Shown: one piece after another, positions 20,464-64,000 of the stretch
Numbering within the stretch: position 1 is the first letter of the stretch
Layout: every line of letters begins with the position of its first letter
Assembly: GCA_963851265.1 (NCBI GenBank)
Contig: CAWKNZ010000008.1
Coordinates: 249,007-313,006, forward strand
From: an uncultured Gemmatimonadales bacterium
Lineage (GTDB): Bacteria; Gemmatimonadota; Gemmatimonadetes; Gemmatimonadales; Gemmatimonadaceae
Reading direction: 5' to 3'
DNA: 64,000 nt
Notes under the pieces: model-generated
Databases searched by the model: none
The model's input: the letters and a program-made list of their open reading frames with translations, nothing else
What the model was told of the DNA's origin: nothing
Made by a program: the position numbers and the translations under genes

Positions 20464-20540
20464 GACGCCCGCGGCGTCGCGACGTCAGTCGACCGGGACG
20501 GCCGACCGGGACGGCGCGCGGCGACTGACGCGGCGAGCGC

Positions 20541-22661
20541 CTAACGGCCGACCCCGGCGCCCGCGAACGCGGACGCGGACGCGCCCACCAGCACGGCCTC
20601 GACCTCGTCGGGTGCGAGTGGGGCGGCGAAGTGGAAGCCCTGGCCGAGCGTGCACCCCATGTCCTCGAGCTGCGCGGCCTGTTCGGCGTTCTCGACCCCC
20701 TCGGCCACGGTGCGCAGCCCGAGGGCGGCGCCGAGCGCGACGATCGCGGCCGCGAGCGCGGCCGGCTGCCCGCCCTCCGCGACCCGCTCGACGAAGCTCT
20801 TGTCGACCTTGAGGACGTCGATCGGGAACTGCCGCAGATAGCTCAGCGCGGAGTAGCCCGTGCCGAAGTCGTCGATCGCCAGCCGGACGCCGAGTGTCTT
20901 CAGCGACTCGAGCCGGCGCCGCACGGCGTCGGGGTGGTGGATCACCGTCGTCTCGGTCAGTTCGAGGACGAGGTGCTCCGGCGCGAGACCGCTCGTCGCG
21001 AGCGCGGCCTCGACCTCGGCGACGAATTCGGTACGGGCGAGCTGCCGGCCCGAGACGTTGACCGCGACGGTGAACGGGGCGGCGGGTCGGCCCGCGGACG
21101 CGCGCGCGCGCTGCCACGCGACCGCCTGACGGCAGGCCTCGTCCAGCACCCAGCGGCCGATGGGCACGATGAGCCCGGTCTCCTCGGCCACGGGCACGAA
21201 CTCCGACGGCTGCACGAGCCCCCGCACCGGGTGGGCCCACCGCACCAGGGCTTCGACGCCCGTCACGTCACCGTCCACCATCGAGACGATTGGCTGATAC
21301 ATCAGGGTCAACTCACCCCGGTCGAGTGCGTCGCGGAGCTCGGCTTCGACCGCGAGGCGCCCGACGAACGTCTCGTGCATCTCGGGTGCGAACATCACCG
21401 CGCGCCCCTTGCCCGCGTCCTTCGCCGCGTAGAGCGCGAGGTCCGCGTCACGGAGCAACGCGTCGACGGGTCCGTCGCTCTTGAGCGCCGCGCCGTCGAA
21501 GTCTTCACCGTTACTACCGCCGCGGGCGATGCCGATGCTCGCGCCGACGCGTGCGTGGCTGCCGTCGACCTCGATCGGGCGCTGCACCGCGGCGATCACG
21601 CGGTCCGCCACGACCAGCGCGTCGGCGTCGCCGCGCACGTTGCTGAGCAGGACGCCGAACTCGTCGCCGCCGAGGCGCGCGACCAGGTCGCATCCGCGGG
21701 TGGCGCTGAGCAGTCGACGCGCGACCTCGACGAGCAGCGCGTCGCCCGCCGCGTGGCCGGCCGTGTCGTTCACGAGCTTGAAGCCGTCGAGGTCGATGAG
21801 CATCACGGCCACGCTCGCCGGGCCGTGTGCGGCGTCCGAATCGCCCGTCCCGCTCGACACGGCCGCGGCGAGGGCGACGTCGGTGCGCTCGCGGAAGCGG
21901 GCGCGGTTGGCGAGCCGGGTCAACGGGTCGTGGTAGGCCCGGAAGTGCAGCTCGTCCTGCAGCTCGCGGTGGTGCGTGACGTCCTGCACGAGTCCGACGA
22001 GGGCGCGACTCTGCGAGCCGGCGCCCTTCCCACGCGGCCCGCCGAGGCGCGAGACGGTCATCTCGCAGCGGCGGAGCGCGCCGTCGCGGCGCCGAAAGCG
22101 TTGCTCGACGGTGACTCGCTCGCCACCGCCGATGGCCTGGGCCAGTGCGGGCAGCTCGTCCACCGCGCGCGCGTCCTGCGGCGGCGCGAAATCGCTCGTC
22201 CGCATCGCCCGCAGCTCGTCGAGCGAATAGCGGACGATCTGCTGGAACGCGGGGTTGGCATCCTCGATCCGCCCGTCGTCACCCTGCACGACGATGCCCA
22301 CCGCGGCGTGCTCGAAGATCGTGCGCAGGCGCGCCTCGCTCACGGCGAGGCGGGCCCGCGCGCGGGCGAACAACAGCGTCAACGCGAGCACGACGGCCAA
22401 CAGAATTCCGGTACGTCCGCCGTCACGCTGCAACTCGGTGAGCACCGCGCCCGGCAGTGCGGTGGTCACGTGTGCGCTGCTTGCCTGCGCGGTGGTCGCC
22501 TGCGCGGCTGTGGCCGCGGTGTCGGCCCCGCGGCCCCCGTCCGACACTGCCCGTTCACTCGGCGCGTGGGTGGCGGTGCGCAGTCGGCCCGATCGGGCGT
22601 GGTGCGTTCGCGCGCGCGCCGGCGGTGCGTCGGGGTCGGTGTATGTACGCTCGTCGATCAC
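20541..22661 (-). CDS. PAS-GGDEF-EAL diguanylate cyclase/phosphodiesterase
   Basis: One [38 protein letters not shown]. Start uncertain. Confidence 0.88.
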
Positions 22662-22944
22662 GGCCGACACTTCGGAGGGCGGGGAGTCAGGTGGGGGCTC
22701 GTCGGCGTGATGCGAGACGCACCCACGCTCGCCCGAGTCTCGGTCGCTGGCGGGCGGGGCCGCAGGTCGGATCTGACCGGGAGGTCGGGCGGCCGGAGAC
22801 TCGCCGGGGCCGCGCGGCCGTGGTCCCTTGTTTGGCCGCACGTTCGGGCCTAGTGTGGGCTCGCTCCGACCGGCCGTCCCCCTGGCGGCCGCGCGGTCGT
22901 GGCACCGGCGGATCGCTGCCGCCTTCCCCTCCTCGAAAGGCACG

Positions 22945-24147
22945 ATGCGGGCGCACGCCGTCACCATGCTCGGCACCGGGCTGATCGGCCGTTTCTACAC
23001 GATGGCGCTGCACGCGCAGCGTGGCCGGGACCGCGTCGGCGTGGCCTACTCGCGCGACGCGGACCGCGCGCGCGCCTTCGCCGAGCGGTGGGACGTGCCC
23101 CGCCACACCACCGACCTCCGGGCGGCGGTCGAGGACCCGTCGACCGACGCGGTCGTGATCGGACTGCCTAACAACCTGCACGAGGAGGCGGTCGCGCTCG
23201 CCGCGCGCGCGGGCAAGGCGGTGCTCTGCACGAAGCCGCTCGGGCGGACGGCGGCGGAGGCGCGGCGGATGCTCGAGACGGTCGAGCGCGCGGGCGTCTT
23301 CCACGGCTACCTGGAGGACCTCGTTTACACGCCGAAGCTGCTCAAGGCGGTCGACGCCGTGCGGGGCGGGGCGGTGGGCGACGTGCTCTGGGTGCGCTCG
23401 CGCGAGGCGCACCCGGGGCCGCACAGCGCGTGGTTCTGGTCGCCGGAGGAGGCCGGGGGCGGGGCGCTGACCGACATCGGGTGCCACTGCGCCGAGATCA
23501 TCCGCACCTTCGTCGGGAAGGGAAACCGCCCCGTCGAGGTGATGTGCTGGACCGACACGCTCGTGCACCCGATCGACGCCGAAGACCACGCGATCGCGCT
23601 CATCCGGTTCGAGAGCGGGGCGATGGGGCAGATCGAGGCGAGTTGGGCGTTCCGCGGCGGGATGGACCTGCGCGACGAGGTGGCGGGGACGGCGGGGACC
23701 ATCTTCCTCAATCACTGGTTGCGCACCGGGTTCGAGATGTTCACGGCCGGCGGCGGCGGCGGGTACGTCGCCGAAAAGCTCGAGTCGGAAAGCGGGTGGC
23801 TCTTCCCGGTCGGCGACGAGGTCCACGAGCTCGGCTACATCCACATGTTCGCCGACATGTTCGGGGCGATGGACGCGGGGCGCGCCCCGGCGGAGGACTT
23901 CTACGACGGCTACGTCGTGAACGCGGTGATCGACGCGTGCTACGCCTCGGCGCGCTCCAGACGGTGGGAGCCCGTGCAACTCGATGTCTGGCGGGCGCCG
24001 GGTCCGGCGCCGCGGGTGCGGGCGGAGGCCCGGACGGTCGACGGCCAGGTGCTGATCAAGGCGGAGCGGATGCCGGACGGCACGCTGAAGCGGATCCTCC
24101 GCGACCCGTCGACGGGCGCGATCACGGAGTCGACCGCAGACGCCTGA
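22945..24147 (+). CDS. Gfo/Idh/MocA family oxidoreductase
   Basis: Rossmann [27 protein letters not shown]. Confidence 0.9.
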
Positions 24148-24185: not shown

Positions 24186-24225
24186 CTCGCGCGGGCCGGC
24201 CGGCGACCCGCCTTCCGTTCGCCGC

Positions 24226-27183
24226 ATGCCCCTCGCGTCGGTTCGCGGGCTGAGCCGGGCGGCCCGCGCGCTCGCCTTCGTGTTCGCCCACGTGTGCGCC
24301 GCCTGCGCCGTCCTTCCGGCCGCGGCGGCTGCGCAACCGGGCGAGGTGCGGCGTGTGCCGGGGGGCATCGTGCTCGGCCTCGCGCGGGGCGCGCTGCGGG
24401 TGACGTTCCACGCGCCCGACGTCGTGCACGTGACGCTCGCGCCGACGGGCAGCTTCTCCGCGCGCCCGAGCCTCGTCGTGCTACCCGCGACGGCGCCCGT
24501 CACGCCCGCGGTGGACGAGGGAACGGACGTCGTGGTCGTGCGCACCGGCGTCGCGCTCGTGCGCGTGTGGCGCGCGACGGGCGCGCTCGCGATCGAGGAC
24601 GGGGCCGGGCGCGTGCTCGTCCGGGCTGCGGCACCCGGATCCGACGCCTTCACCCCCGCGCGCGACACCGGCGCGACCGCGGACGGGCCGGCGTGGGCGG
24701 TCCGCCAGCGGTTCGTGCTCACGCGCGACGAAGGGCTCTACGGTCTGGGTCAGTACCAGGACGGGGTCATGAACTACCGCGGCGAGGAGGTGCTCGTCGC
24801 GCAGGCGAACACGAGCGCCGCGATCCCATTTCTGCTGTCGACCCGGGGCTACGGCGTGCTCTGGGACAACTACAGCCGGACCGTGTTCGACGACGCGCCC
24901 GCGGCCCCGCCATCGGCCGCGCCCGCCGCGGCCCCCGACACTGCCTCGCTGTCGTCGGACGTCGCCGACGGCATTGACTACTACGTGGTCGCGGCCCGGC
25001 ACCCCGACGACGCGGTCGCGGGCTTCCGCCGGCTCACGGGCGCGGCGCCGATGTACCCGCGCTGGGCGTACGGGTACTGGCAGAGCAAGGAGCACTACGA
25101 CAGCCAGCGGGAGCTGTTAGGCGTGGCCGCCGAGTACCGGCGGCGGCGCGTCCCGGTCGACGCCATCGTGCAGGACTGGAGTTACTGGCCGGGGCCCGAC
25201 CGGTTCAGCGGCATGGTCTGGGACCCGGCGCGCTACCCGGACCCGGCCGCGATGGCGCGCCAGCTCCACGCCGAGCACTTCCACTTCATGGCCGTCATCT
25301 GGCCAGCGCTCGGCGACAGCACCGCCGTCTATCGCGACATGGCCGCGCGCGGCTTCCTCTACCCGCGCCCGCACTGGGCGCCCGCGCGCGTGTACGACGC
25401 GTACGACCCGCGGGCGCGCGACCTGTACTGGACGTACGCGAAGCGCGGCGTGTGGGACGTCGGGATCGACGCGTGGTGGATGGACGCGACCGAGCCCGAG
25501 TTCCGCTCGACCGACGACCGATACGTCACGGCGCGCTCGACGCTGGCGAACGGGCGCAACGCGTTGGGCACGTTCGCGCGCTACCTGAACCCCTACTCGC
25601 TGCTCACCACGCGCGGGATCTACGAGCACCAGCGCGCGCTCACGGAGGCGAAGCGCGTCGTCATCCTCACGCGCTCGGCGTTCGCCGGGCAGCAGCGGTA
25701 CGCGACGACGCTCTGGTCGGGAGACATCTGGTCGAGTTGGGGGGTGTTCCGCAACCAGATCCCCGCGGGGCTGAACGCCGGGATGGCGGGGCTGCCGTAC
25801 TGGACGACGGACGTCGGCGGCTTCATCTCGAGCCACCGATTCCCGGGCGGCGTCGCCGACCCGGCCTTCCGCGAGTTGTACGTGCGCTGGTTCCAGTTCG
25901 GAGCGTTCTGTCCCATTTTCCGCGCGCACGGCTCGAACACGCCGCGCGAGGTGTGGCAGTTCGGCGGGCCCGGCGACTGGGCCTACGACGCGCTCGTCGC
26001 GGCCGACAGCCTGCGGTACCGGCTGCTGCCGTACGTGTACTCGCTCGCGCACGGAGTGCGCGAGGGCGGGACGATGATGCGCGCCCTGCCGCTCGCGTTT
26101 CCGGACGACCGGCGCGGCTACGGCGTGGGGGGAGCGTTCATGTTCGGCCCGGCGCTCCTCGTGAGTCCTGTGACGCGGCCGATGCGGTACCCGCCCGCGC
26201 GGGCGCAGGAGTGGATCCCCGCGCGCGACCTCTACGCGCCCGACGGCCGGACGCGCGGCATGCGCCTCGACTTCGTACGCGGCGCGGGGCGCGACCCGTT
26301 CGTCCGCGACTCGCTCGTCGCGACGCGACCGGCCGAGGTGTTCAACCTGACGTGGGCGGGGGCGCTGCCCGAGTCGCTCGCCGCGAGTCCGTACAGCGCG
26401 CGCTACACCGGCGTGTTGCGGGCGGAGGAGGGCGGGGGGTACGAGTTCGTGCTCACTACCGACGGCGGCGTGCGGCTCTGGCTCGGCGACTCGCTGGTGG
26501 TGGATCGGTGGGACAACCGCGACACGCTCGAGGTGCGCCACGCGGTCCGCCTGGGTGCGGGGAGCGCGCACGCGCTGCGGCTCGAGTACCGGGAGGCGCG
26601 GCCGGGCGCGGGCCGGCTCCTGCTGGAGTGGATCACGCCCTCGACCCGCGCGAGGCTGCGCCCCGACCCGAACTGGGCGACGTACCTGCCGGCGGGGGCA
26701 GACGAGGGTGTGGCCCGGCCGGGCGGGACGAGGGGCGGCTGGTACGACTTCTGGACGGGCGAGCGGCTGGCGGCCGGGCGCGTGGCAGTGCGCCCCGCGC
26801 CGATCGCGCGCGTGCCACTGTACGTGCGTGCCGGCTCGGTGGTGCCGATGGGTCCCGCGCTCCAGTACGCCGACGAGCGCGCGGCAGACCCGATCGAGTT
26901 GCGCGTGTATCCGGGCGCGGACGGCGCGTTCACGCTCTACGAGGACGAGGGCGACTCGTACCGCTACGAGCGCGGCGTGTCGGCGACGATCCCGATCGCG
27001 TGGAACGACGCGGCCGGAACGCTCACCATCGGCCCGCGCGCCGGGCGGTTTCCGGGCATGCTCGAGCGGCGGACGGTGCGGGTGGTGTTCGTGCGCCCGG
27101 GGCACGGCGTCGGGCTGCCGGAGGCGACGGTCGCGGACCGGGTCGTGACGTTCGACGGGCGCGCGGTGGTGGTACGGCGCTGA
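24226..27183 (+). CDS. Glycoside hydrolase family 31 (alpha-xylosidase-like) with PA14 insertion
   Basis: Signal peptide; GYWQSKEHY, WWMDATEP (nucleophile), WSGDI (acid/base), RWFQFGAFCPIFRAHG; PA14-like TDGGVRLWLGD; C-terminal YEDEGDSYRYERG. Confidence 0.92.
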   Translation: MPLASVRGLSRAARALAFVFAHVCAACAVLPAAAAAQPGEVRRVPGGIVLGLARGALRVTFHAPDVVHVTLAPTGSFSARPSLVVLPATAPVTPAVDEGTDVVVVRTGVALVRVWRATGALAIEDGAGRVLVRAAAPGSDAFTPARDTGATADGPAWAVRQRFVLTRDEGLYGLGQYQDGVMNYRGEEVLVAQANTSAAIPFLLSTRGYGVLWDNYSRTVFDDAPAAPPSAAPAAAPDTASLSSDVADGIDYYVVAARHPDDAVAGFRRLTGAAPMYPRWAYGYWQSKEHYDSQRELLGVAAEYRRRRVPVDAIVQDWSYWPGPDRFSGMVWDPARYPDPAAMARQLHAEHFHFMAVIWPALGDSTAVYRDMAARGFLYPRPHWAPARVYDAYDPRARDLYWTYAKRGVWDVGIDAWWMDATEPEFRSTDDRYVTARSTLANGRNALGTFARYLNPYSLLTTRGIYEHQRALTEAKRVVILTRSAFAGQQRYATTLWSGDIWSSWGVFRNQIPAGLNAGMAGLPYWTTDVGGFISSHRFPGGVADPAFRELYVRWFQFGAFCPIFRAHGSNTPREVWQFGGPGDWAYDALVAADSLRYRLLPYVYSLAHGVREGGTMMRALPLAFPDDRRGYGVGGAFMFGPALLVSPVTRPMRYPPARAQEWIPARDLYAPDGRTRGMRLDFVRGAGRDPFVRDSLVATRPAEVFNLTWAGALPESLAASPYSARYTGVLRAEEGGGYEFVLTTDGGVRLWLGDSLVVDRWDNRDTLEVRHAVRLGAGSAHALRLEYREARPGAGRLLLEWITPSTRARLRPDPNWATYLPAGADEGVARPGGTRGGWYDFWTGERLAAGRVAVRPAPIARVPLYVRAGSVVPMGPALQYADERAADPIELRVYPGADGAFTLYEDEGDSYRYERGVSATIPIAWNDAAGTLTIGPRAGRFPGMLERRTVRVVFVRPGHGVGLPEATVADRVVTFDGRAVVVRR

Positions 27184-27710: not shown

Positions 27711-27786
27711 CCCGGTGCACGACGCCTAACGCATGGTCGTGGCCGGCGCGGCAGCGGACCACCGCTCCGCGCTCGCCGCCCGCACG

Positions 27787-30000: not shown

Positions 30001-31191
30001 GTGCGCGCGCCGGTGCCACCTCCGACGACGTCGGACGCCGCGGCCGGGGAGGCCGCCCCCGGGCCGTTCCACGCCGGAGAGCTTGCCGTGCAGGCCCGGG
30101 CCGGCGTGCGATCGCAGGCGGCGCGCGTGGGCGGGATCATCGGCCCCACGATCCCGCCGGCGTTCGCCGGATTCCTCCGCGCGGCGCGCGTGGTGGCGGC
30201 CGGCGCGGCCGACGCGCGCGGGCACGTGTGGGCTACACTCCTCGTAGGCGCGCCGGGGTTCGTCGTCGCGTCTCAAGCGCGGGTGTGGGTCGGCGCGGTG
30301 CCGGCCCCGGGCGATGCGCTGCGCGCCCTCCTCACGCGAGCGGACGCGCCGAACGCCGCCGTCCCGGCCGCGATCGGCCTAACCGTGATTGATCTGGCCA
30401 CGCGTCGACGCGTGCGCGTCAACGGGACGCTTGCCGACGGGACGCTTGCCGACGGGACGCTCGGCGGCGGAACGGGAGGCTTCGCCGTCTCAGTGGAGGA
30501 GGCGTACGGGAACTGCCCCAAGTACATCCAGGCGCGCACCGCGGCCGGCGGCGCTGAGGCTCACGCCTTCGCGAACGTGGCGGGAGGCGCGACCCCGGAG
30601 CGCGACGGCCTCGGTGCCGCCGAGCGGGCGTGGATCGCCGGCGCCGACACCGCGTTCATCGCGAGCGTGGGACCGGGGAGCGTCGCGGGTTCCGAGCCGG
30701 GGGTGCGCGCCGGCGAGCGCGCCGACGCGTCGCATCGCGGCGGCGCGCCCGGTTTCATGGTCGCGGTCGACGCGCGTCGGGTGCTGCTCCCCGACTACTC
30801 CGGCAACACCATGTTCAACACCCTCGGCAATCTCGCGGTCGATCCGCGCGTGGGGCTCACGGTGCCGGACTTCGCCACCGGCCGTCTGCTGCAGCTCTCG
30901 GGCACTGCGTCGATCGACTGGCGCCCCGAGGCCGCCGCCCGCTTCCCGGGCGCCGAGCGCGTGGTGGTCATAGCCGTCGACCGCGTGCGCGAGGTCGCCG
31001 GCGCGCTGCCGACGGAGTGGTCGCCACCGAGCCCGTCGCCGTTCAACCCGCGCGTACGCACCGAACCCCGCGCGATCTCCGCGCGGACCTCCGCCGTCGC
31101 GAGGCGAGCATCAACGACGTCCCGATCGCCGAGGCCGAGCGGCGGTTCCGTTGGCCCAAGGGCCCGCGTCCCGTCGACCCCCCCGGCCTGA
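30001..31191 (+). CDS. Pyridoxamine 5'-phosphate oxidase-related FMN-binding protein (tandem domains); C-terminus probably extended by read-through
   Basis: PFHAGE, RRRVRVNG, YGNCPKYIQ, DASHRGG, PDYSGNTMFNTLGN; 15-bp in-frame duplication GTLAD-GTLAD. Confidence 0.88.
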   Translation: MRAPVPPPTTSDAAAGEAAPGPFHAGELAVQARAGVRSQAARVGGIIGPTIPPAFAGFLRAARVVAAGAADARGHVWATLLVGAPGFVVASQARVWVGAVPAPGDALRALLTRADAPNAAVPAAIGLTVIDLATRRRVRVNGTLADGTLADGTLGGGTGGFAVSVEEAYGNCPKYIQARTAAGGAEAHAFANVAGGATPERDGLGAAERAWIAGADTAFIASVGPGSVAGSEPGVRAGERADASHRGGAPGFMVAVDARRVLLPDYSGNTMFNTLGNLAVDPRVGLTVPDFATGRLLQLSGTASIDWRPEAAARFPGAERVVVIAVDRVREVAGALPTEWSPPSPSPFNPRVRTEPRAISARTSAVARRASTTSRSPRPSGGSVGPRARVPSTPPA

Positions 31192-31397: not shown

Positions 31398-32753
31398 GTG
31401 TCCTTCGCCCCACTCGCCGCCGCCGCCTTCCTCGGCGGGGTGCTCACGATTCTGAGCCCGTGCATCCTGCCGGTGCTGCCGTTCGTCTTCGCGTCGACCG
31501 GGCGCCCGTTCGCGCGCTGGACGGGGCCGATGCTCGCCGGGCTCGTGACCGCGTTCGTCGCGGTCGCCGCGGCCGGCACGGCCGGGGCGGCCTGGGCCGC
31601 GGAGGCGGCCGACGCCGGCCGCTGGCCCGCGCTCGCCCTCCTCGCGCTCGCCGGGCTGAGTCTGATGTCGGAGCGCGTCGCCACCGTCGTCACGCGCCCG
31701 TTCGTGCGGCTCGGGGCGGGCATCGAGCGGCGCGCGGCCGGCGCGCCGGGTACACCGGGTGCGGGTCCGGTCGCGGCGCTCGCGCTCGGCGTCGCGACCG
31801 GCCTGCTCTGGGCTCCGTGCGCCGGGCCCGTGCTCGGCCTCGTCGTCACGCTCGCCGCGTCGGGGGCGGCCCCCGGCCGTGCGGCGGCCCTCTTCGCGAT
31901 CTTCGGAGCCGGCGCGGCGACCGCGCTCGCCGGCGCGCTCGTGGCCGGCGGCCGGGCGTTAGGCGCGCTGCGCCGCTTCGGCGGCGCGGAGCGCTGGGCG
32001 CGGCGCGCCGTCGGCGGCTTCGCGCTCGCGGCGGTCGCCGTGATCGCGCTCGGGTGGGACGCCGATCTCCTCTCGCGGGGCGGCCTGGTGCAGACCGCGG
32101 GCGCGGAGGAGGCGATCCTCGCCCACGTCGCGCCGGGCGCCAAGGCCGAAGCGGCGCACGCGCTGGCATCGAGCCCCCGCGCCGCGGCCCCGGCCGCGCC
32201 GACCGCCGCGGCGCTGCCGCCGGTGCCGACGCCGGACCACGGTCCGCTCCCCGATTTCGCGGGCGGCACCGAGTGGATCAACGGCGCGTCGCTCGGCCTC
32301 GGGCCGAACGCCGGCACGCTGCGCGCGTCGGCGCTCCGCGGCAAGGTGGTCGTGGTGAACGTGTGGACGTTCGAGTGCTACAACTGCCTGAACGCGCTGC
32401 CGCACGTGAAGGCGCTCGCGGCGAAGTACCGCGGGCAGGACGTGGTCGTGATCGGCGTGCACACGCCCGAGCTGGCCCGCGAGCGGGTGCCGCGGAACGT
32501 CGAGGACGCGGTGCGCCGGCTCGGCGTGACCTACCCGGTGGTGTTCGACCCCAACTACAGCATCTGGCGCGCGTTCCACAACGAGTACTGGCCGAGCGTG
32601 TACATCGCGGACCGGAACGGCCGCATCCGCTTCCAGCGCTTCGGCGAGGGCGCGTACGACGAGGAGGACCGCACGGTGGCACAGCTCCTCGCCGAGCCGG
32701 CCCAGTCGGCGTCGACCCCGGCGGGAACTCCTCGCGCGGTCGCGGCTAGGTAG
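31398..32753 (+). CDS. DipZ-like CcdA/DsbD transmembrane plus thioredoxin fusion
   Basis: LSPCILPVLP, WAPCAGPVL, NVWTFECYNC, GVHTPE, NEYWPS. Confidence 0.88.
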   Translation: MSFAPLAAAAFLGGVLTILSPCILPVLPFVFASTGRPFARWTGPMLAGLVTAFVAVAAAGTAGAAWAAEAADAGRWPALALLALAGLSLMSERVATVVTRPFVRLGAGIERRAAGAPGTPGAGPVAALALGVATGLLWAPCAGPVLGLVVTLAASGAAPGRAAALFAIFGAGAATALAGALVAGGRALGALRRFGGAERWARRAVGGFALAAVAVIALGWDADLLSRGGLVQTAGAEEAILAHVAPGAKAEAAHALASSPRAAAPAAPTAAALPPVPTPDHGPLPDFAGGTEWINGASLGLGPNAGTLRASALRGKVVVVNVWTFECYNCLNALPHVKALAAKYRGQDVVVIGVHTPELARERVPRNVEDAVRRLGVTYPVVFDPNYSIWRAFHNEYWPSVYIADRNGRIRFQRFGEGAYDEEDRTVAQLLAEPAQSASTPAGTPRAVAAR

Positions 32754-32829: not shown

Positions 32830-33126
32830 ATGGCCGACGCTCGTCCCGACATCGTCGCCCCCGCCGTCCCAGCAGCGGCCGGGGCGGCCGCGCCCGACGC
32901 CGCGTCGCCTAACGTGCCGCCGGGCCTGGTCGAGGTGCGCGTCCGCGCGATCAGCTGCGAGGCGGCGATGCGCCGCCTTTGGGACTACGTCGATGCCCGC
33001 CTCGGCGAGCCGGCGCGCGCCGAGACGGACGCGCACCTCGCGGAGTGTGCGGGGTGCCCGCCGCACGTCGCCTTCGCGGTCAAGCTGAAGCGGGCGCTCG
33101 CGGCGTCGCGCGGGGCGACGTCGTGA
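32830..33126 (+). CDS. Zinc-finger (zf-HC2/ZAS) anti-sigma factor
   Basis: SCEAAMRRLWDYVD...HLAECAGC (Hx3Cx2C). Confidence 0.8.
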   Translation: MADARPDIVAPAVPAAAGAAAPDAASPNVPPGLVEVRVRAISCEAAMRRLWDYVDARLGEPARAETDAHLAECAGCPPHVAFAVKLKRALAASRGATS

Positions 33127-37471: not shown

Positions 37472-40299
<2,828 letters not shown>

Positions 40300-42463: not shown

Positions 42464-42608
42464 CCCGCGGTCGTTAGGCACCGGGTCGCGGCCGGCGTGC
42501 TGGCGCCGCCGGTTCGCGCATCCGGTCCGGCGGCACTATACCGTTCCCCACGCGACGCACCGCGCTCAAGCAGGACCGGGCGCGGACGCGTTCGTCGACG
42601 GCGAGGCC

Positions 42609-53730: not shown

Positions 53731-54121
53731 GGCCGTACGCTACCCCACAACACGCCCCGGCACCACCGCTCGGCCTCCGCGTGCGCCCGCGGGAACTCCC
53801 GGTCCACCGCGGTCGCTCGCGCGGGTGGTCTGCGCGTCGAACCTGATCGCAGCCACCCAGCACTCGAAGCTCCCGGTGACGCCGACGGCGCCGGGGCCCG
53901 CCTGCCTAACGTGTCGCCACCGACCGCCCTGAATACCCGGCGTGCCAACGCTTCGGCGGGGCCGGCGCGGCCCGCGCCCGCGTCGCCACGCGCCGGTCGT
54001 CCGGTTTCGACCACGTCACGACACGTCGTCCCGCCCACGCCGCGGGCGCCCCCGGGTGCCGTCAGCGCGCCGCCTCCGGGGAAGGCGACTGCCGCGCGCG
54101 GCCGCGGAGGCGGAACGTTCG

Positions 54122-54150
54122 TTGACTTCCCCCGTCTCGTTAGGCATGAT
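54122..54150 (+). promoter_or_regulatory. Sigma70-type promoter for the MFS gene
   Basis: TTGACT - 17 bp - CATGAT; a GTTAGGC heptamer sits at the end of the spacer. Confidence 0.45.
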
Positions 54151-54242: not shown

Positions 54243-55895
54243 ATGTCGACCGCCGTGTCACGAGGGGCCGCGCCCGCCGCCGCCCCGCCCGCCGCCGCCC
54301 CGCCGCGCCACGCGTCTGCCGCCGCCGTCGCGGCCGACCTCCACCGGTACCGCTGGATCATCCTCGTCGGGCTGATCACGGCCGCCATCATGGAGGTGCT
54401 CGACAGCACGATCATCAACGTCGCCCTGCCGCAGATGGCCGGGAATCTCGGGGCGACGACGACGGAGATCGCGTGGGTGAGTACGTCCTACATCCTCGCC
54501 AACGTCGTGGTGCTGCCGATGACGGCCTACTTCACGACCACGTTCGGCCGCAAGCGGTACCTGACCTTCTCCGTCCTCCTCTTCATCGCCGCGTCGTTCT
54601 TCTGCGGCACCTCCGGGTCGCTGACCGAGATCGTCGTCTGGCGCCTGCTGCAGGGCGCGGGAGGCGCGGCCCTGCTCTCGACGGCCCAGGCCACCATCCG
54701 GCAGATCTTCCCCCGCGAGGAGCAGGCGATCGTCCAGACGCTGTTCCTGCTCGGCATCATCGTCGCGCCGACGTTAGGCCCGACGCTCGGCGGGTGGATC
54801 ACGGACAACTACACCTGGAGCTGGTGCTTCTTCATCAACGTGCCGATCGGCATCGTGAGCGCGTTCCTCGTCGTGACGTTCCTGCAGGACCCCCCGGACC
54901 AGCAGCGCCGCTCGGTGCCGGCGGACTGGCTCGGCATCGGGCTGCTGATCGCCGGCGTCGGGTCGCTGCAGTACGTGCTCGAAGAGGGCAACCAGAACGA
55001 CTGGTTCCAGGACGACCTGATCCGCGCGCTCGCCCTCGTCTCGGCCGCCGCGCTCGCGGTCCTGCTCTGGTGGCAGCTGTCCCGGCGCAACACCCACCCG
55101 GTGATCCAGCTGCGCGTCCTGAAGAACCGCGACCTCGCCGCGTCGATCGGCCTGTTCGTCGTGCTCGGATTCGGCCTGTTCGGCGGGGCGTTTCTCTTCC
55201 CGCTCTTCACGCAGACGCTCCTCGGCTTCAGCCCGACCCAGACGGGGCTGTCACTGCTGCCGGGCGGGCTGGCGACGGCGGTGCTCGCGATGACGTGCGG
55301 GTTCCTCCTCTCCGGCGCACGCCCCAAAGTGGACGCGCGGCTGCTCGTGTTGAGCGGGCTGGCACTGATGCTGTGGGCGATGTGGGACCTGGGGCACCTG
55401 ACGACCGCCGCCGGTGAGGGCGACGCGCGCCTCGCCCTCATCATCCGCGGGGCGGCGCTCGGCCTGCTGTTCGCGCCGATCAACAACGTCGCCTTCGGCA
55501 GCCTCGACCCCAAGGATGCCCAACAGGCGGCGGGGCTCATCAACCTGGCCCGCCAGCTCGGGGGTTCGTTCGGGATCGCGGTACTCGGCACCTACCTGAT
55601 GCGCCACGCGCAGAGCCACCGCGTCGACCTCGTCCAACACTTCTACGCCGGCAACCCGGCCTTCGAGCTGCGGTTCCGCGGCCTCGTCGTCGGGGCGCAG
55701 GCGGGGGGCGCGCCGCTCGCGGCGGCGCAGCAGCGCGCGTACGCGCTCCTCGACGGCACCGTGGCGCGTCAGGCGCTGATGCTCGCCTACAACGACGCGT
55801 GGCTCCTGATCCTGCTCACCTTTCTGGCCGTCGTCCCGGCCGTGTTCGTCCTGCGCCGGCCTCGCGGCAGCGCGGGTGCGGGCGCGGCGCACTGA
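54243..55895 (+). CDS. DHA2 (EmrB/QacA) family MFS efflux transporter
   Basis: LDSTIINVALP, WVSTSY, FGRKR, APTLGPTLGGWI, FFINVPIG, RQLGGSFG. Confidence 0.93.
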   Translation: MSTAVSRGAAPAAAPPAAAPPRHASAAAVAADLHRYRWIILVGLITAAIMEVLDSTIINVALPQMAGNLGATTTEIAWVSTSYILANVVVLPMTAYFTTTFGRKRYLTFSVLLFIAASFFCGTSGSLTEIVVWRLLQGAGGAALLSTAQATIRQIFPREEQAIVQTLFLLGIIVAPTLGPTLGGWITDNYTWSWCFFINVPIGIVSAFLVVTFLQDPPDQQRRSVPADWLGIGLLIAGVGSLQYVLEEGNQNDWFQDDLIRALALVSAAALAVLLWWQLSRRNTHPVIQLRVLKNRDLAASIGLFVVLGFGLFGGAFLFPLFTQTLLGFSPTQTGLSLLPGGLATAVLAMTCGFLLSGARPKVDARLLVLSGLALMLWAMWDLGHLTTAAGEGDARLALIIRGAALGLLFAPINNVAFGSLDPKDAQQAAGLINLARQLGGSFGIAVLGTYLMRHAQSHRVDLVQHFYAGNPAFELRFRGLVVGAQAGGAPLAAAQQRAYALLDGTVARQALMLAYNDAWLLILLTFLAVVPAVFVLRRPRGSAGAGAAH

Positions 55896-56713: not shown

Positions 56714-56811
56714 CGTCGTCCGTTAGGCTATTCGTTAGGCACGCCAGACCACGCCCGCCCGCGCGCCGCCCCCGCTCCGACGCGCGTTCCCTCCCTGCCC
56801 CGACTCCTCCC

Positions 56812-58213: not shown

Positions 58214-58240
58214 CGCCGGGCGACGACGCGTGTGGTCGAG

Positions 58241-59297: not shown

Positions 59298-61880
59298 TCA
59301 CGAGCCGTGGCGCACGAGGATGCGGTGCGCCAGCGGGAGGTCCCAAGATTTGGGGTCTTCGTCCGACGCCGGCATGAGCAACACCGCGGCGTCAGCGGCC
59401 GCGAGCGGGCGCGCGAAGTGGTACCCCTGCCCGTACCCGCACCCGGCCGCCCGCAGCGCGGCCGCTTGCGACGCGTGCTCGATTCCTTCGGCCACGCAGC
59501 GGACGTCGAGCGTGGCGGCGAGCCCGACGATTGCAACGGTCAGCTTCGCATCCGGCCCACCCTCTGCGACCCCGTCCACGAACGCCTTGTCCACTTTGAG
59601 CACGTCGACCGGGAAGCGCCGCAGGTAGGCGAGCGACGAGTAGCCGGTGCCGAAGTCGTCGATCGCGATCCGGACGCCTAACGCCTTGAGCGCGTGGAGG
59701 GTACGGAGCGCCGCGTCGGCGCGGTGCATCACCACGCTCTCGGTGATTTCCAGGAGCAGCCGTCCGGGCGCGATGCCCGCGTCTGTGAGCGCGTCGGCGA
59801 CGTCGGTGACGATCCCGGCGTCTTCGAGCTGCCGGCCGGACAGGTTCACCGACACGTACGGCCCGTCCTCCGGGCCGGACGCGGGCTCCCACGTCCGGGC
59901 CTGACGACACGCCGTACGGAGCACCCAACGGCCGAGCGGGACGACGAGGCCGGTCGCCTCGGCCAGCGGGATGAACTGCGCCGGGCTGACGAGTCCGCGG
60001 GTCGGGTGGTGCCAGCGCACGAGCGCCTCGGCGCCGACCGGACGTTCGGTGTCGAGCGCGACGATGGGCTGGTAGACGACGCGCAACTCGGCGTCCGGCG
60101 TGGCGAGCGCACGCCGCAGGTCGGCTTCGAGCGCGAGCCGGTCGAGGAGCGCGGCGTGCATCGCGGGGGCGAACACCGCGTGGCCGTCGCGCCCCTGCTG
60201 CTTCGCGCGATACATCGCGACGTCGGCGTTCCGCAATAATTCGTCGGGGCCGTCGCGCTCGGTCGCGCGTGCCACGCCCACGCTCGCGACGGCGAGCAGC
60301 TCGGCGCCGTCGAGCGTGACGGGCCGGCGGAGTGCGGCCAGTACGCGCTCGACCACGTCCGTGACGTCCGAGTTGTCGGTCCCGCCCTCGACCAGAACGG
60401 CGAACTCGTCCCCGCCGAGTCGCGCGACCGTGTGCCCGTCGCAGGTCGCGCGCAACCGCCGCGCGACGTCGCAGAGCAGACGGTCGCCGGTCGCGTGGCC
60501 GAGCGCATCGTTCACGGACTTGAAGTGGTCGAGGTCGAGCACGAGCACAGTAACGCCGGTCCGCGCGAGGTCGCGGGCGAGGGCGTCGGCGGTCCGGTCG
60601 CGGAACGCGGCCCGGTTGGCGAGGCCGGTGAGCGGGTCGCGGTACGCCTGATAGGCGAGCTGCGACTGCTTGCGCGCGACGGCACGCATCAGCCGGGCGA
60701 AGGAGACGTGCAGGGACCGGATCTCGACCGCGCCGCCCGAGCGCGCGGGGTCGACGAGACCACCGGCGGTCGCGCCATCGCTCGTGCGCAGGAGCCGGAC
60801 GAACGCCTCCAGCGGGCCCAGGACGGTGCGGGCGAGCAACGCCGCGCCGAGTCCCGCGAGCGCCACGGCGACGAGCCCGCAGCCCGCGAAATCGACGAGG
60901 AGCGCGCGCATCGTCTGCCGGAGCGCCGGCGTCACGCCCTCGATGAGAGTTAGGCGTACCGGGATCCCGTCCTGCGTCGCGCCAACCGCGACCGATGCGA
61001 CCATGTACTCTGCACCGCCCCACCAGGCGGGGTGCGGCGCGTCGTCCTCGCCCGGATGCCGGTCGCTGGCGACGGCAGCCGACGCTCCCGGCGCGTCGCG
61101 CAGCGTCGACTGCAGGGTGCGCGCGCCTGCCGTCACCACGAGGTCGCCGCCGAACGTGCGCTGGAGCGCGGCCAGATGCGGCGCGTCGAGCCGATCGCCG
61201 AGGATCACGGTTCCGATCGTGAGGCCGTCGAGCACGATCGGCGCGACCCCGACGCGGTAGTACGTGCGCCCGACGCGAAGGACCGAGAGGTACCGACGAC
61301 TGTCGCTCCCGTCCAACGCGGGGTCGAGCGCGGCGTGGACGGCAGGTAAGCCCGAGACGTCGGCGCCCGCGCGCGGCGTCTCATCGGACGTGCGAGCGTC
61401 GGCGGCCCCGGGCGCGTACGCCACGAAGATCCGCCCGACGTCGTCGGTCGTGGCGACGAGATCGCGGTCGAGGTCGGGCGCGAGCCGCTCGAGCTCGCGC
61501 CCGACGGTGCGCGCGAGTTCCGCATGTGCGACGTCGCCGGGCCCCACGCCACCCGCGCCCGGGCCGCCGATGCCTAACGTTCCCTCGACGCGCGAAGTGC
61601 CCAGCGCCGAGCGGAGGTTCGGGTTCGCGGCGGTGAGCGCGGCGGCGGCCACGAGCTGCTGATCGCCGCGCCGCTGGAGCTGCACCAGCGTGCGTTGCGC
61701 GTGCGCGACCTGTCCGGCGACGAGCGCACGGGTGGTCGCGCGCACTCGCATGCCTAACAATGCGAACGCGGACGTCACGACGCCCGCGGTCAGGACGACG
61801 CTCAGGCAGGCGAGCCGGACGCCGAGCCGGGTCCGGCGCCAGACACCCCCGCGTCGGCGGCTAATGTTCGCGCGCCGCAT
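59298..61880 (-). CDS. Membrane sensor (periplasmic domain, HAMP-like linker) GGDEF-EAL protein
   Basis: Two TMs flanking a sensor domain; [34 protein letters not shown]. Start approximate. Confidence 0.9.
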   Translation of the reverse strand: MRRANISRRRGGVWRRTRLGVRLACLSVVLTAGVVTSAFALLGMRVRATTRALVAGQVAHAQRTLVQLQRRGDQQLVAAAALTAANPNLRSALGTSRVEGTLGIGGPGAGGVGPGDVAHAELARTVGRELERLAPDLDRDLVATTDDVGRIFVAYAPGAADARTSDETPRAGADVSGLPAVHAALDPALDGSDSRRYLSVLRVGRTYYRVGVAPIVLDGLTIGTVILGDRLDAPHLAALQRTFGGDLVVTAGARTLQSTLRDAPGASAAVASDRHPGEDDAPHPAWWGGAEYMVASVAVGATQDGIPVRLTLIEGVTPALRQTMRALLVDFAGCGLVAVALAGLGAALLARTVLGPLEAFVRLLRTSDGATAGGLVDPARSGGAVEIRSLHVSFARLMRAVARKQSQLAYQAYRDPLTGLANRAAFRDRTADALARDLARTGVTVLVLDLDHFKSVNDALGHATGDRLLCDVARRLRATCDGHTVARLGGDEFAVLVEGGTDNSDVTDVVERVLAALRRPVTLDGAELLAVASVGVARATERDGPDELLRNADVAMYRAKQQGRDGHAVFAPAMHAALLDRLALEADLRRALATPDAELRVVYQPIVALDTERPVGAEALVRWHHPTRGLVSPAQFIPLAEATGLVVPLGRWVLRTACRQARTWEPASGPEDGPYVSVNLSGRQLEDAGIVTDVADALTDAGIAPGRLLLEITESVVMHRADAALRTLHALKALGVRIAIDDFGTGYSSLAYLRRFPVDVLKVDKAFVDGVAEGGPDAKLTVAIVGLAATLDVRCVAEGIEHASQAAALRAAGCGYGQGYHFARPLAAADAAVLLMPASDEDPKSWDLPLAHRILVRHGS

Positions 61881-62670
61881 CGGCCGCGGGCAGCGGGATG
61901 GTGAAGTCCAACTGAACGGCCTGCCCGGGTTCGAGGTGCATCCGGTGCGGGATCGGACGGATCCGCTCGTGCCACGCGACGACCGTGTAATCGCCCGCCG
62001 GGAGGTTGGGGATCACGTAGCGCCCGGCAGCGTCCGGCGCGGCGAAGTACGGGTTGTCGAGCACGAGGACGAGCGCGCTCATGTCCGAATGAATGTGGCA
62101 GAACACCTGGACCACACCCGGGCGATCGAACACGGCGGACTTCGAGCTACCGCGCGGGTAGCGGCCGAGGTCGAACTCCTTCGTACGCGAGAGCGAGAAC
62201 ACGTTGTGGAACAGATCGTCGTCGTTCACGAAATCGACCGTCGTTCCGCGCATGACCGGGAGCACGTGCGGCGTGAAGCGTTCGCCGTGCTGGCGTAATA
62301 CCGCGTGTTGGGCGGCACCGCTCGCGCCGTCGTCCGTGGCCGCGGGCACCGACGACGTCCCCGCACGTTCGACGTAGAGGATGACGTTCTGCAGTTCGTC
62401 GCGATCGCTCTGCCGGGATTCTGGTGGAAGCGCGCCGGGGCCGGCTTCGGCGTAGATCCGAAACCGGGGGCGATGCGAGCCGAGCGCGCGCGAAATCTCC
62501 ACGTGGCCCTCGACGCTCGCGGTGCGCACCGGGCTGGGTCGGCGGTCTCCGGGTCCGAGGCGGCCTCGGGTCGGGCCGGTGCCCGCGCTCGCGCGTGGAG
62601 CTACCCCTGCGGTCGCGACTTCAACGGCGAGCAGCAGGCACAGGGAGCGGAGCGGTCGGGCGGTGCACAT
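61861..62670 (-). CDS. Secreted cupredoxin-like/carboxypeptidase-regulatory-like domain protein
   Basis: Signal peptide; F.PHVLPV..G..V.F.N.D...HNVFS, VFCHIHSDM (C-x2-H-x2-M), GDYTVVAWHE. Confidence 0.8.
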   Translation of the reverse strand: MCTARPLRSLCLLLAVEVATAGVAPRASAGTGPTRGRLGPGDRRPSPVRTASVEGHVEISRALGSHRPRFRIYAEAGPGALPPESRQSDRDELQNVILYVERAGTSSVPAATDDGASGAAQHAVLRQHGERFTPHVLPVMRGTTVDFVNDDDLFHNVFSLSRTKEFDLGRYPRGSSKSAVFDRPGVVQVFCHIHSDMSALVLVLDNPYFAAPDAAGRYVIPNLPAGDYTVVAWHERIRPIPHRMHLEPGQAVQLDFTIPLPAADAAREH

Positions 62671-62856
62671 GAGAGCGGGGGACGGCAGGGCGCGGGACGG
62701 GAGCGTCTCCCGGGAGGACGAGGGCCGCCGGCTCGGGTCACCGCGCGCTCGCGTCGCCCGCCCACGACGGTGACCCGTCTCGGGACAGGTCGTCTGTGGA
62801 GGCGCCGGGGGCACGCTCGGTCCGCGGCCTCTCGCCTGTCGTCTGAATCGGTTCTC

Positions 62857-64000
62857 ATGCACGCGTTCCCCAATCCGCCCCGCCCGCGCCGCGCGTGGCG
62901 GGCCGTGTCCGTAGTGTTAGGCATCGCCTTCGCCGTCGGCGCACCGGATCGCGCGGCCGCGCAGCACGCCATCCTGGTGCAGGGCGTCGCCGACGCCGAG
63001 TGGTGGAAAACGGACTCGGGTTCGGTCCTGTTGACCCGGAATCATGGGCATCCTGGCATGCTGGAGCGGGTGCAAGTGTGGGGTGCTGCAGAGGTCCGGC
63101 ACGACGTGCTCGTGTACGCGGCGGCGACCGGCGAGACCGGGCGCGCGCGTACCGAGCCGGGCACCGAGTGGTACGCCGATCAGGTGGGAATGCGCTACAC
63201 ACGCTCCGACGCGCTCGTGCTGGACGCGGGCAAGATGCCGCACCCCGTTGGCGCGTTCGCAAGCCGGCGCTACTCGATGCGCAACCCGCTCATCGGCCGG
63301 CCGGACGGGTACCCCGTGCAGTACCCGTTGGGCGTCCAACTCACAGGCACGCGTGGGCGCATCGACTACCGGGCCGCTGTCGTGTCGCTCCCCGTCTACC
63401 ACGAGGATTACACGCCGGATCCGACGCCGGCGGCGCGCCCTGCCTTCGGCGCCGGGTTCACGCCGATGACAGGCGTGCACGTCGGCGCGTCGGCCACGTG
63501 GGGGCCGTATCTCAGCCGCGAACTGCCGGCGGCGTTGTACGCCGGCCGCTCGTGGCGGTCGTACACGCAGCGCGTCGGCGCGCTCGATACGCGGGTCGAC
63601 CGCGGCTACTTCGAGTTCCGGGGCGAACTGGGTGCCGTTCGGGCGCTCGTTCCCGGAAACGCCGGGGCCGGCGCCGTGGCGGTCGACGGGCTGACGTACT
63701 ACGGGGAGGCGAAATACACGCTCACCCCGCGCGTGTTCGTCGCCGGTCGCGTCGAACGCAACGACTATCCATACATCCAGCCGGCCGAAACGTCGGGATG
63801 GGTCGCGACGTCGACTGACGTTTATAACGGCGAATTCGGCGTCGGCTACCGGGCGGGCGCGCGGACGCTGCTCAAGGCGTCACTCCGCACGGACCGGTGG
63901 GAGGTGCCCCCCGCGATGCGCGCCGCTCTCCCGAACGGCGCGGCGTTCGCGTTCCAGTGTTCGCGCACCTTCGACCTTCTCGACACCTCGATCGGGCGCC
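62857..64000 (+). CDS. Probable outer-membrane beta-barrel protein; runs off the window end (absent from the ORF track)
   Basis: Open frame from ATG 62857 to the end: MHAFPNPP...AAAQ signal peptide, LDAGKMPHPVGAF, NPLIG, YYGEAKYTLTPRVFVAGRVE, EFGVGYR. Confidence 0.75.
   Translation, partial: MHAFPNPPRPRRAWRAVSVVLGIAFAVGAPDRAAAQHAILVQGVADAEWWKTDSGSVLLTRNHGHPGMLERVQVWGAAEVRHDVLVYAAATGETGRARTEPGTEWYADQVGMRYTRSDALVLDAGKMPHPVGAFASRRYSMRNPLIGRPDGYPVQYPLGVQLTGTRGRIDYRAAVVSLPVYHEDYTPDPTPAARPAFGAGFTPMTGVHVGASATWGPYLSRELPAALYAGRSWRSYTQRVGALDTRVDRGYFEFRGELGAVRALVPGNAGAGAVAVDGLTYYGEAKYTLTPRVFVAGRVERNDYPYIQPAETSGWVATSTDVYNGEFGVGYRAGARTLLKASLRTDRWEVPPAMRAALPNGAAFAFQCSRTFDLLDTSIGR

Follow-up and report, generated by a model that had tools for sequence, protein, structure and literature searches.

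GTTAGGC, a hyper-abundant heptamer of Gemmatimonadales genomes and a possible uptake-sequence-like self signal

The heptamer GTTAGGC is iterated far beyond expectation in a 64,000-nucleotide stretch of DNA from an uncultured Gemmatimonadales bacterium (assembly GCA_963851265.1, contig CAWKNZ010000008.1, positions 249,007 to 313,006; hereafter the window), and throughout the genome to which that stretch belongs. This genome, labelled G000, is a 73% GC assembly of 4.60 Mb in 12 contigs, with the window at G000:C8:249007-313006, and labels such as G001 and G012 denote relatives. GTTAGGC is a feature of the DNA itself, used in all six reading frames and in stop codons. By analogy with known systems, we tentatively propose that it may be an uptake-sequence-like self signal that follows the mechanism of DNA uptake sequences.

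To our knowledge, only two families of Proteobacteria have an established system of sequence-specific DNA uptake, and there is still debate over how uptake tags evolve and for what reason. An independent third example, if true, would be valuable, as it comes from an abundant and barely studied soil phylum. The on/off contrast within one genus (~4,000 vs 66 copies), together with a cultured carrier, would make the receptor, the question of drive versus selection, and soil transformation directly testable. If the reader is intracellular instead, the motif-free gaps at partition and origin loci described below would point to an unknown rule of replicon organisation. The word also serves as a practical marker for resident versus recently acquired DNA in these genomes, and it accounts for most rare TTA codons and many TAA and TAG stops. 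A literature search, which did not cover subscription-only papers, found no paper on GTTAGGC or on uptake sequences in Gemmatimonadota.

Abundance, exact form and coding context

The window holds 25 exact copies of GTTAGGC, 12 on the forward and 13 on the reverse strand, where 100 dinucleotide-preserving shuffles give a mean of 2.21 (sd 1.38, max 6) and the genome's order-0 expectation, scaled to the window, is ~5.5. A first-pass annotation, made from the letters of the window, had counted the same copies by eye and obtained about 5 from a mononucleotide model. It had also described the copies as mostly preceded by C or T, as leaving about 7 TTAG or CTAA tetramers elsewhere, and as including fourteen that use the rare leucine codon TTA. 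The recount agrees: C or T precedes 23 of the 25, seven of the 32 tetramers lie outside the motif, and our own gene calls read 14 copies as xxG-TTA-GGC, two as G-CCT-AAC, two as GC-CTA-AC and one as a TAG stop, with six intergenic. The copies that had been placed in other frames (CCT-AAC at 23166 and 32907, CTA at 30377 and 60949) and in the stop at 20539 are all borne out. Five intergenic copies (42473, 53904, 54139, 56722 and 56734) stand as listed, and a sixth, at 27724, had been omitted. Positions 1-20538 of the window hold no copy of GTTAGGC. The copies, with their strands and the coding sequences (CDS) in which they lie, are:

20539..20545, - strand, supplies the TAG stop of CDS 20541-22547(-), read GT-TAG-GC
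23166..23172, - strand, antisense in CDS 22855-24147(+), G-CCT-AAC
25116..25122, + strand, in CDS 24226-27183(+), G-TTA-GGC
27724..27730, - strand, intergenic
30377..30383, - strand, antisense in CDS 30001-31191(+), GC-CTA-AC; preceded by G, one of the two copies without Y
31958..31964, + strand, in CDS 31398-32753(+), G-TTA-GGC
32907..32913, - strand, antisense in CDS 32830-33126(+), G-CCT-AAC
34205..34211, + strand, in CDS 33123-34325(+), G-TTA-GGC
36518..36524, - strand, in CDS 36059-37471(-), G-TTA-GGC
37025..37031, - strand, in CDS 36059-37471(-), G-TTA-GGC
38341..38347, - strand, in CDS 37468-40299(-), G-TTA-GGC
39184..39190, - strand, in CDS 37468-40299(-), G-TTA-GGC
41080..41086, + strand, in CDS 40628-41374(+), G-TTA-GGC
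42473..42479, + strand, intergenic, 10 bases past CDS 42050-42463(+)
47735..47741, + strand, in CDS 46890-49169(+), G-TTA-GGC
53904..53910, - strand, intergenic
54139..54145, + strand, intergenic
54773..54779, + strand, in CDS 54243-55895(+), G-TTA-GGC
56721..56740, + strand, CGTTAGGC twice in direct orientation, 12 bases apart (GTTAGGC at 56722 and 56734), 8 bases past the stop of the MarR gene 56246-56713
59676..59682, - strand, in CDS 59298-61880(-), G-TTA-GGC
60949..60955, + strand, antisense in CDS 59298-61880(-), GC-CTA-AC; preceded by A
61572..61578, - strand, in CDS 59298-61880(-), G-TTA-GGC
61752..61758, - strand, in CDS 59298-61880(-), G-TTA-GGC
62916..62922, + strand, in CDS 62857-64000(+), G-TTA-GGC

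Across G000, GTTAGGC occurs 1762 times (885 forward, 877 reverse) and is found on every contig at 0.33-0.55 per kb. Markov models predict 397 (396.5) copies at order 0, 160 at order 1, 96 at order 2 and 127 at order 3, and the word is the top 7-mer of the genome both by z (170) and by the ratio of observed to expected counts (O/E; 18). A maximal-order Markov test masks the word, its parts TTAGGC (1794) and GTTAGG (1848) being themselves nearly all the word. The full word is Y-GTTAGGC-(not T): over the 1762 copies, position -1 is C in 79% and T in 14%, and position +7 is G in 54%, A in 22%, C in 19% and T in 5%. These flank preferences are unchanged in the 227 strictly intergenic copies, which lie at least 10 bases from called genes. 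A larger repeat or mobile element (repetitive extragenic palindrome or miniature inverted-repeat transposable element) is ruled out, as neither set of copies carries information beyond positions -1 and +7. O/E is equal for CGTTAGGC (27.8) and TGTTAGGC (26.1), and is 6.4 for AGTTAGGC and 2.4 for GGTTAGGC. The 24 single-mismatch variants of CGTTAGGC are at background (median O/E 0.86). The highest of them, besides those at position -1, are CGTTAGAC (2.25), CGTTGGGC (2.21) and CGTTAGTC (2.14), and several neighbouring words are depleted, with O/E of 0.14 for CGCTAGGC and 0.21 for CCTTAGGC.

Genes were called in G000 with a simple codon log-odds finder, giving 3809 genes (89.4% coding) with crude starts and exact stops, and 1295 copies fall wholly within one called gene. 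Shuffling synonymous codons within each gene, which preserves the protein and the codon counts, TTA codons included, leaves 72.8 +/- 8.7 copies (max 94 in 30 shuffles). Most genic copies (994) read G-TTA-GGC, with 25 as GTT-AGG-C, 202 as antisense G-CCT-AAC and 74 as antisense GC-CTA-AC, and 994 of the 1302 TTA codons of G000 sit within the word. In the context YG_GGC the leucine codon is TTA in 21.3% of cases, compared to 0.2-0.7% in control contexts and only 3.6% if position -1 holds a purine. TTG, the one-step precursor, is likewise enriched in the exact context (8.3% vs 1-4% in controls). Both stop-bearing frames are used: GCC-TAA-C accounts for 128 of the 452 TAA stops and GT-TAG-GC for 83 of the 763 TAG stops. 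Occupancy, the share of amino-acid contexts carrying the word among those able to do so by synonymous choice, is:

sense YG-TTA-GGC, 12.6% (942/7470)
antisense xG-CCT-AAC, 13.6% (198/1452)
GC-CTA-ACn, 3.9% (74/1914)
GTT-AGG-C, which requires two rare codons, 0.7% (25/3464)

The excess of sense copies in genes thus reflects more permissive contexts, occupancy being 12.6% for sense and 13.6% for antisense. A codon or amino-acid artefact is ruled out by the synonymous shuffle, the intergenic logo and the equal sense and antisense occupancy. The first-pass annotation had argued for a force that acts on the DNA as such, regardless of frame or strand, and had likened it in this respect to uptake sequences and to the cyanobacterial word HIP1. 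Run genome-wide, the Markov test (1762 vs 96-397 expected), the codon-preserving null and the count of TTA codons in G-TTA-GGC all leave that core inference standing, as do the intergenic flanks and the equal occupancy.

Density in G000 is 0.92/kb outside called genes and 0.32/kb inside (~3x); spacers between convergent genes carry 1.24/kb, those between tandem genes 0.55 and those between divergent genes 0.33. Downstream of 3' ends, 83 of 283 copies lie within 20 bases of the stop, without correction for spacer length. There, copies in the two orientations relative to the flanking gene number 142 and 141; upstream of 5' ends the split is 129:128, and the distribution within genes is flat. The median spacing of 1806 bases is that of a Poisson process (1797), while all-pair ratios are 0.56 at 0-50 bases, 0.21 at 50-100, 0.31 at 100-200, 0.47 at 200-300 and 0.86 at 300-500, then ~1. 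The same short-range avoidance is seen in samples of G001 (0.29, 0.15, 0.37, 0.73) and of G012, which is 4x denser (0.23, 0.34, 0.56, 0.76). In three genomes, then, sites repel one another below ~300 bp.

Distribution, turnover and gene conservation

All five genomes of the window's genus are enriched in the word, with 1762, 2703, 977 (in 1.7 Mb), 2124 and 3304 copies, and G012, of another genus, is enriched more strongly (7758 copies in 5.1 Mb). Among 41 relatives a few are mildly enriched, and the majority hold 5-100 copies, compared to 200-1000 of the reversed control word. K-mer samples give the same picture. The word is the top 7-mer in G001 (228 vs 10.3 expected in 400 kb), in G040, of another family (29 vs 1.8), and in G018 (22 vs 3.1), and CGTTAGG is the top 7-mer in G012 (475 vs 18.5 in 282 kb). 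The G012 genome, at 62% GC, has GTTAGGC 397 times and GTTAGGT 103 times in this sample, a small dialect of the form CGTTAGG[C/T]. The samples of G005, G009, G016 and G036 show no such word. Two other words deserve mention: GTTTGGC/CGTTTGG, one letter off the word, is mildly over-represented in G008 (40 vs 10), and CGTCTAT in G005 (21 vs 3.6 expected); these may be dialects or unrelated.

A survey across Gemmatimonadota, which the annotation had suggested, covered 301 genomes with CGTTAGGC and finds strong enrichment only in scattered genera of one order, that of the window. In family f1 several genera are enriched (copies/control, e.g. G305 4469/133, G166 1100/173, G122 709/201, G194 815/226), in family f2 the single genus g76, and in families f4-f12 none of 104 genomes exceeds 70 copies of CGTTAGGC. 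The sharpest contrast is within genus g48, where G241 and G298 hold 3896 and 4141 copies of CGTTAGGC but G294 only 66. The unpublished genomes G011, G086, G125 and G204 are counted in these tallies, and no statement rests on them alone.

Turnover of sites was followed in orthologous genes. A DNA search of the window against five relatives shows poor synteny, and orthologs were instead taken from 400 kb of G001 and 282 kb of G012. In codon alignments of 282 G000-G001 ortholog pairs (81% nucleotide identity), G001 retains 39 of the 84 G000 sites, where the baseline is 30.6% identity for all 7-base windows, and G000 retains 39 of the 158 G001 sites. The replaced states are mainly synonymous (GTTGGGC, GCTCGGC, GCTGGGC). 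In shared Y-Leu-Gly contexts G000 and G001 hold 34 common sites, where 11.8 are expected under independence. For G000 and G012 (117 pairs, 65% identity) the figure is 7 vs 5.7 expected (Fisher p 0.57), with 17% of these contexts occupied in G000 and 35% in G012; a small Pro-Asn class has 4 common sites vs 1.7 expected (p 0.03). Sites have thus largely turned over between genera, and each lineage keeps its own high occupancy, from which it follows that the process is active now.

Density also rises with gene conservation. Over 344 genes of the G001 sample it climbs through 0.22, 0.39, 0.51 and 0.60/kb, from 30 genes without a good G000 homolog (0.22/kb) to 131 genes of >85% identity (0.60/kb), and over quintiles of codon score, a measure of native codon usage, it goes from 0.18 to 0.40/kb. 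Treangen et al. (PMC2397512) describe DNA uptake sequences (DUS) as rich in core genes, absent from recent genes and located at permissive positions, and the rise with conservation and codon score matches that part of their account.

Motif-free gaps at partition and origin loci

The word is missing from a set of long gaps in G000. The largest, of 45.1 kb (C1:182876-227962; 37 genes, GC 0.738), contains gidA/mnmG, parA, parB and mnmE. No canonical parS (TGTTTCACGTGAAACA) is present in G000 within 2 mismatches, and a genus-specific palindrome was found instead: TGTGGCACGTGCCACA, which is parS-like, has only two perfect copies in the genome (C1:192709-192724 and 195715-195730), just upstream of parA, and a 2-mismatch copy at C1:186276, also within the gap. 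G001 and G004 carry the same two copies of TGTGGCACGTGCCACA, while G305, G012 and G241 have the canonical form. Each of the four ParB_N matches of G000, like its single dnaA, falls in a motif-free gap of 14.5 kb or more; gaps of this size cover 6% of the genome (sum of the listed gaps). Once the first such locus had been seen, the chance of finding four further loci of four in these gaps is ~1e-5. Besides the parB locus of C1, these are:

C8:259016, ParB-family gene, in gap C8:248137-269544 (21.4 kb, third largest of the genome)
C6:81336, ParB-family gene, in gap C6:76505-91676
C9:124281, ParB-family gene, in gap C9:116596-131158
C1:12048, dnaA, in gap C1:2107-17073

ParB genes stand near the middle of the gaps, which extend -10.9/+10.3 kb around them on C8 and -7.7/+6.6 kb on C9. 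The C8 gap, which includes window positions 1-20538, has a normal GC of 0.743 and a GC at third codon positions (GC3) of 0.911. At its centre stands a module that looks like one for the maintenance of a secondary replicon or integrated plasmid:

window 7194..11520, - strand, replicon-maintenance module
window 10582-11520, - strand, ParA
window 9155-10309, - strand, ParB/RepB-like protein of 384 aa, a weak relative with 28-31% identity to plasmid ParB over the first third
window 7194-9044, - strand, 616-aa protein with a DnaA_N domain

Foreign DNA alone does not account for the gaps: composition and GC3 are normal, the second-largest gap is a housekeeping region (infC-rpmI-rplT-pheST, rny, xseAB, dxs, recN), and the extra replicons otherwise have a normal density of the word. 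The gaps may be shielded from the process that spreads the word, or selection may have cleared them of it. Two further gaps hold repeats near their ParB-family genes, four copies of a palindrome around TTCGGTAACCGAA at C9:122817-123010 and three 15-base tandem repeats at C6:87338-87390, which look centromere-like or iteron-like.

The pattern recurs in relatives but is not general. The parB region has 3 sites in 35.5 kb of G001 (~21 expected) and 2 sites in 20 kb of G004 (~12 expected). In G305, G241 and G012, which have canonical parS, the gap at parB is only 6.4, 3.2 and <1 kb, respectively; G012 has copies within parB itself and at 0.7-0.9 kb from parS, and G241 has one at 0.56 kb from parS. 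ParB-like loci of other replicons sit in gaps of 10.9 kb on G305 C2 (p 0.004), 9.2 kb on G305 C3 (p 0.012) and 17.8 kb on G004 C3 (p 3e-4), and a second such locus on G305 C1 in a gap of at least 19.9 kb (p 1e-5); the gaps at the ParB-like loci of G004 C4 and G001 C4 are not significant. At dnaA, the gap is 18.9 kb in G001 (p 1.5e-4) and 5.1 kb in G012 (p 0.012), and not significant in G004, G305 or G241.

What reads the word

In the mechanism we tentatively favour, a component of type IV pilus or ComEC import would prefer fragments that bear the word. Biased uptake and homologous replacement, with or without selection for own-kind DNA, would then keep seeding the word where it is cheapest, at stop codons and in 3' intergenic DNA, then at Leu-Gly (G-TTA-GGC) and Pro-Asn (G-CCT-AAC). 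Close copies would not be favoured because one copy per few hundred bases suffices. In its full form, Y-GTTAGGC-(not T), the word would be a lineage-specific signature upheld by an ongoing sequence-specific process on double-stranded DNA, whatever it encodes. The likeness is to the DUS of Neisseriaceae and the uptake signal sequences (USS) of Pasteurellaceae, which are also short, non-palindromic words of ~10^3 copies, equal on the two strands and used in all frames. Like them, GTTAGGC is found at permissive positions, is richer in core than in accessory genes, is denser between genes, is specific to lineages and has type IV pilus and ComEC genes alongside. The abundance, sharp specificity, strand symmetry, placement by cost, core richness, short-range repulsion and turnover of GTTAGGC match the descriptions of uptake sequences in Neisseria and Haemophilus (PMC2397512, PMC2817400).

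Several observations weigh against this proposal. The chief one is the gaps at par and ori loci, which favour an intracellular reader and are not predicted by an extracellular one. The core of the word is shorter than a DUS or USS (7-8 bases), and it forms no inverted-pair terminators: in G000, 30 adjacent pairs lie at 40-200 bp vs 104 expected, and inverted pairs within 60 bp are not favoured (3 '+-' and 3 '-+'). Known uptake sequences drift into dialects, whereas the identical word recurs here in genera of three families. The proteome shows almost no shift (ALG 1.12, SLG 1.18, TLG 1.03, PLG 0.97, PN 1.17), where Findlay & Redfield (PMC2817400) report a doubling of encoded tripeptides for uptake sequences. 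Single-mismatch forms, at background here, are unlike the graded over-representation that Bakkali reports for DUS and USS (PMC1939737). The import machinery exists but is widespread. ComEC is found in G000 and, whether or not the word is enriched, in 40 of 41 relatives; G000 has nine pilin-like genes and two secretins, one at C5:34324 near a pilin at C5:26256, and 40 of the 41 relatives have a secretin. As ComEC and secretin are equally present in relatives without the word, this machinery leaves the patchy distribution unexplained. A search for the ComP-type receptor domain ComP_DUS (PF16732) gives no match in G000 and one above cut-off in the 41 genomes, in the non-enriched G014.

We infer uptake as the reading step, and no receptor was found among the candidates tested. 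By phyletic pattern, none of ComEC, secretin, ComP_DUS, integron integrase, Vsr or RecC tracks the word. A three-gene minor-pilin cluster (G000 C3:173442-175722) has orthologs in the enriched G241 and G298 and none in the non-enriched G294. It was nonetheless rejected as the specificity factor, and this too counts against the uptake proposal: among the 41 genomes, 15 non-enriched relatives have a full-length homolog of its 411-aa member, whereas the mildly enriched G023, G036 and G038 have none.

The gaps raise the alternative of an abundant intracellular DNA-binding protein, serving nucleoid organisation, segregation or self-marking, whose thousands of sites would be under selection on all replicons and excluded where ParB/parS and DnaA/oriC assemble, as a bound reader would interfere there. 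We judge this unlikely, though it deserves serious weight. It would explain why all four ParB_N matches and the only dnaA of G000 fall in long gaps, the largest among them, and why these are centred on ParB genes, are normal in composition and each hold repeats of centromere-like appearance. Similar gaps on G305 C2 and C3, on G004 C3 and at dnaA of G001 and G012, and the depleted parB region of G001, point the same way, as does the very sharp specificity, and a footprint or a one-per-unit rule would give the repulsion below ~300 bp. However, exclusion is not general, given the copies near parS in G012 and G241 and the non-significant gaps at G004 C4, G001 C4 and the dnaA genes of G004 and G305. 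The large chromosomal gap is confined to the genus with the unusual parS, where shared history is an alternative, density is lowest in the promoter-bearing divergent spacers, and no candidate protein was identified. We also know of no nucleoid protein that forces 1,700-7,800 exact 8-mers against codon usage. In its most specific version, which we find slightly more doubtful again, the word would be the address of a reader that marks the bulk DNA of all resident replicons and is kept out of ParB/parS and DnaA/oriC zones, a new chromosome-organising or self-marking system. A recombinase-like or ParB-like protein may underlie such a reader, given that GTTAGGC is identical to the integron R-box and that ParB genes stand at the centre of the gaps. 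The binding sites of Noc (NBS) and of SlmA (SBS) resemble this arrangement in being spread over the chromosome and missing from one functional domain, but they are tens of palindromic 12-16-mers missing at the terminus, unlike the asymmetric 8-mers here, which number in the thousands and are absent around par and ori loci.

The consensus of the attC core is GTTRRRY, and the letters of GTTAGGC fit it; the chance that a top 7-mer falls within this 16-member set is ~0.2%. Copies could be docking or secondary cassette sites of integron-type tyrosine recombination, or be read by a domesticated recombinase. In non-enriched relatives most copies form -/+ pairs ~83 bp apart every 0.4-0.6 kb (G027 C43, C67 and C80). 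The G027:C80 array abuts an integrase fragment (6419-7148), so local integrons use exactly GCCTAAC...GTTAGGC, and 25 of 41 relatives have an integrase above the curated cut-off. Even so, this explanation is improbable. Enrichment and integrase do not go together: the integrase is intact in a large number of genomes that lack enrichment (G005, G006, G007, G009, G014, G025, G026 and others), in pieces in G000 (C6:5244-6044 and 3005-3166), G001 and G012, not found above cut-off in G002, G008 and G018, and present within one genus in the non-enriched G294 and the enriched G241 and G298 alike. Only 8 of 1762 G000 copies are in attC-like -/+ pairs at 40-200 bp, >98% of genomic copies are solitary and in ordinary genes, and new copies arise by synonymous point changes in conserved genes, without inserted DNA. 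A mutational or repair drive tied to modification, of the HIP1 or very-short-patch kind, in which a methyltransferase marks the word and mismatch repair converts near-matches, is similarly hard to credit, if anything a little harder. The frame-blind force on DNA, the sharp boundary between the perfect word and its neighbours, and the under-representation of CGCTAGGC and CCTTAGGC would suit it. Yet the precursor GTTGGGC is enriched rather than drained (8.3% vs 1-4%; CGTTGGGC has an O/E of 2.2), the word is not palindromic, and Vsr occurs in four of 41 relatives (G005, G010, G022, G034), none of them enriched, and was not found in G000-G004 or G012. HIP1 (GCGATCGC), a palindrome of cyanobacteria that is linked to methyltransferases and whose function is not established, is likewise a hyper-abundant exact word that overrides codon choice in patchy lineages, whereas GTTAGGC is asymmetric. 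A cultured carrier, Gemmatirosa kalamazoonensis KBS708, has 42 copies vs 1.2 expected in part of its plasmid 1 (NZ_CP007129.1:100001-150000), where the word is the top 7-mer. Its single-molecule real-time (SMRT) methylome lists only RGATCY, ATGCAC and CCAGN7TCA (PMC3974934), which weakens the modification signal that the annotation had offered as one option, with the limit that 5-methylcytosine would largely escape the method. Lastly, a polar chromosome motif of the Chi or FtsK-orienting polar sequence (KOPS) type, which a repair or segregation motor would read as it translocates, is close to refuted. A density of 1 per 2.6 kb and the length of the word are in the known Chi range, and the word is moderately G-rich. 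However, the strands are balanced genome-wide, word strand is uncorrelated with GC skew over 92 bins (r 0.11, p 0.31), and intergenic copies divide 130:130 and 93:99 by local skew. On contig C2 (1.83 Mb) the cumulative word strand tracks only the cumulative gene strand (r 0.61 over bins), in keeping with the sense excess that permissive contexts produce. RecC was found in one of 41 relatives and not in G000, AddAB and AdnAB not having been searched for. The earlier argument from lack of strand bias against Chi and KOPS is therefore upheld.

Some minor observations accompany these results. The integron integrase gene of G000 lies in two pieces ~2 kb apart (C6:3005-6044), and the attC-like -/+ pairs of the word in this genome include one by the integrase (C6:1591/1701) and four on C10 (C10:188935-203785), possibly a cassette cluster without integrase. 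Regular GCCTAAC/GTTAGGC pair arrays, with ~83 bases between partners and a pair every 0.4-0.6 kb, are found on G027 C43, C67 and C80 and on G029 C49 and C113; these are chromosomal integron cassette arrays, and such integrons seem common in the order. At ~1.0-1.6 Mb of G000:C2, genes are nearly one-stranded on either side of ~1.3 Mb (up to 94% per 100 kb). This region matches the high-strand-bias domain with little recombination that is reported at the terminus in Gemmatimonadota (PMC11237797), and the domain is slightly poorer in the word (0.303 vs 0.366/kb on C2, p 0.004). Apart from the main pilus cluster, which is on C5, a second PilA-like pilin gene (G000:C1:169104-169481) lies immediately downstream of the gene for DNA polymerase I (C1:165885-168959). 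In the window, CDS 37468-40299 encodes a GH63-like glycoside hydrolase, a widely exchanged gene whose protein has relatives of 52-69% identity in metagenome-assembled genomes labelled Myxococcota, Planctomycetota, Acidobacteriota, Verrucomicrobiota, Cyanobacteria and others.

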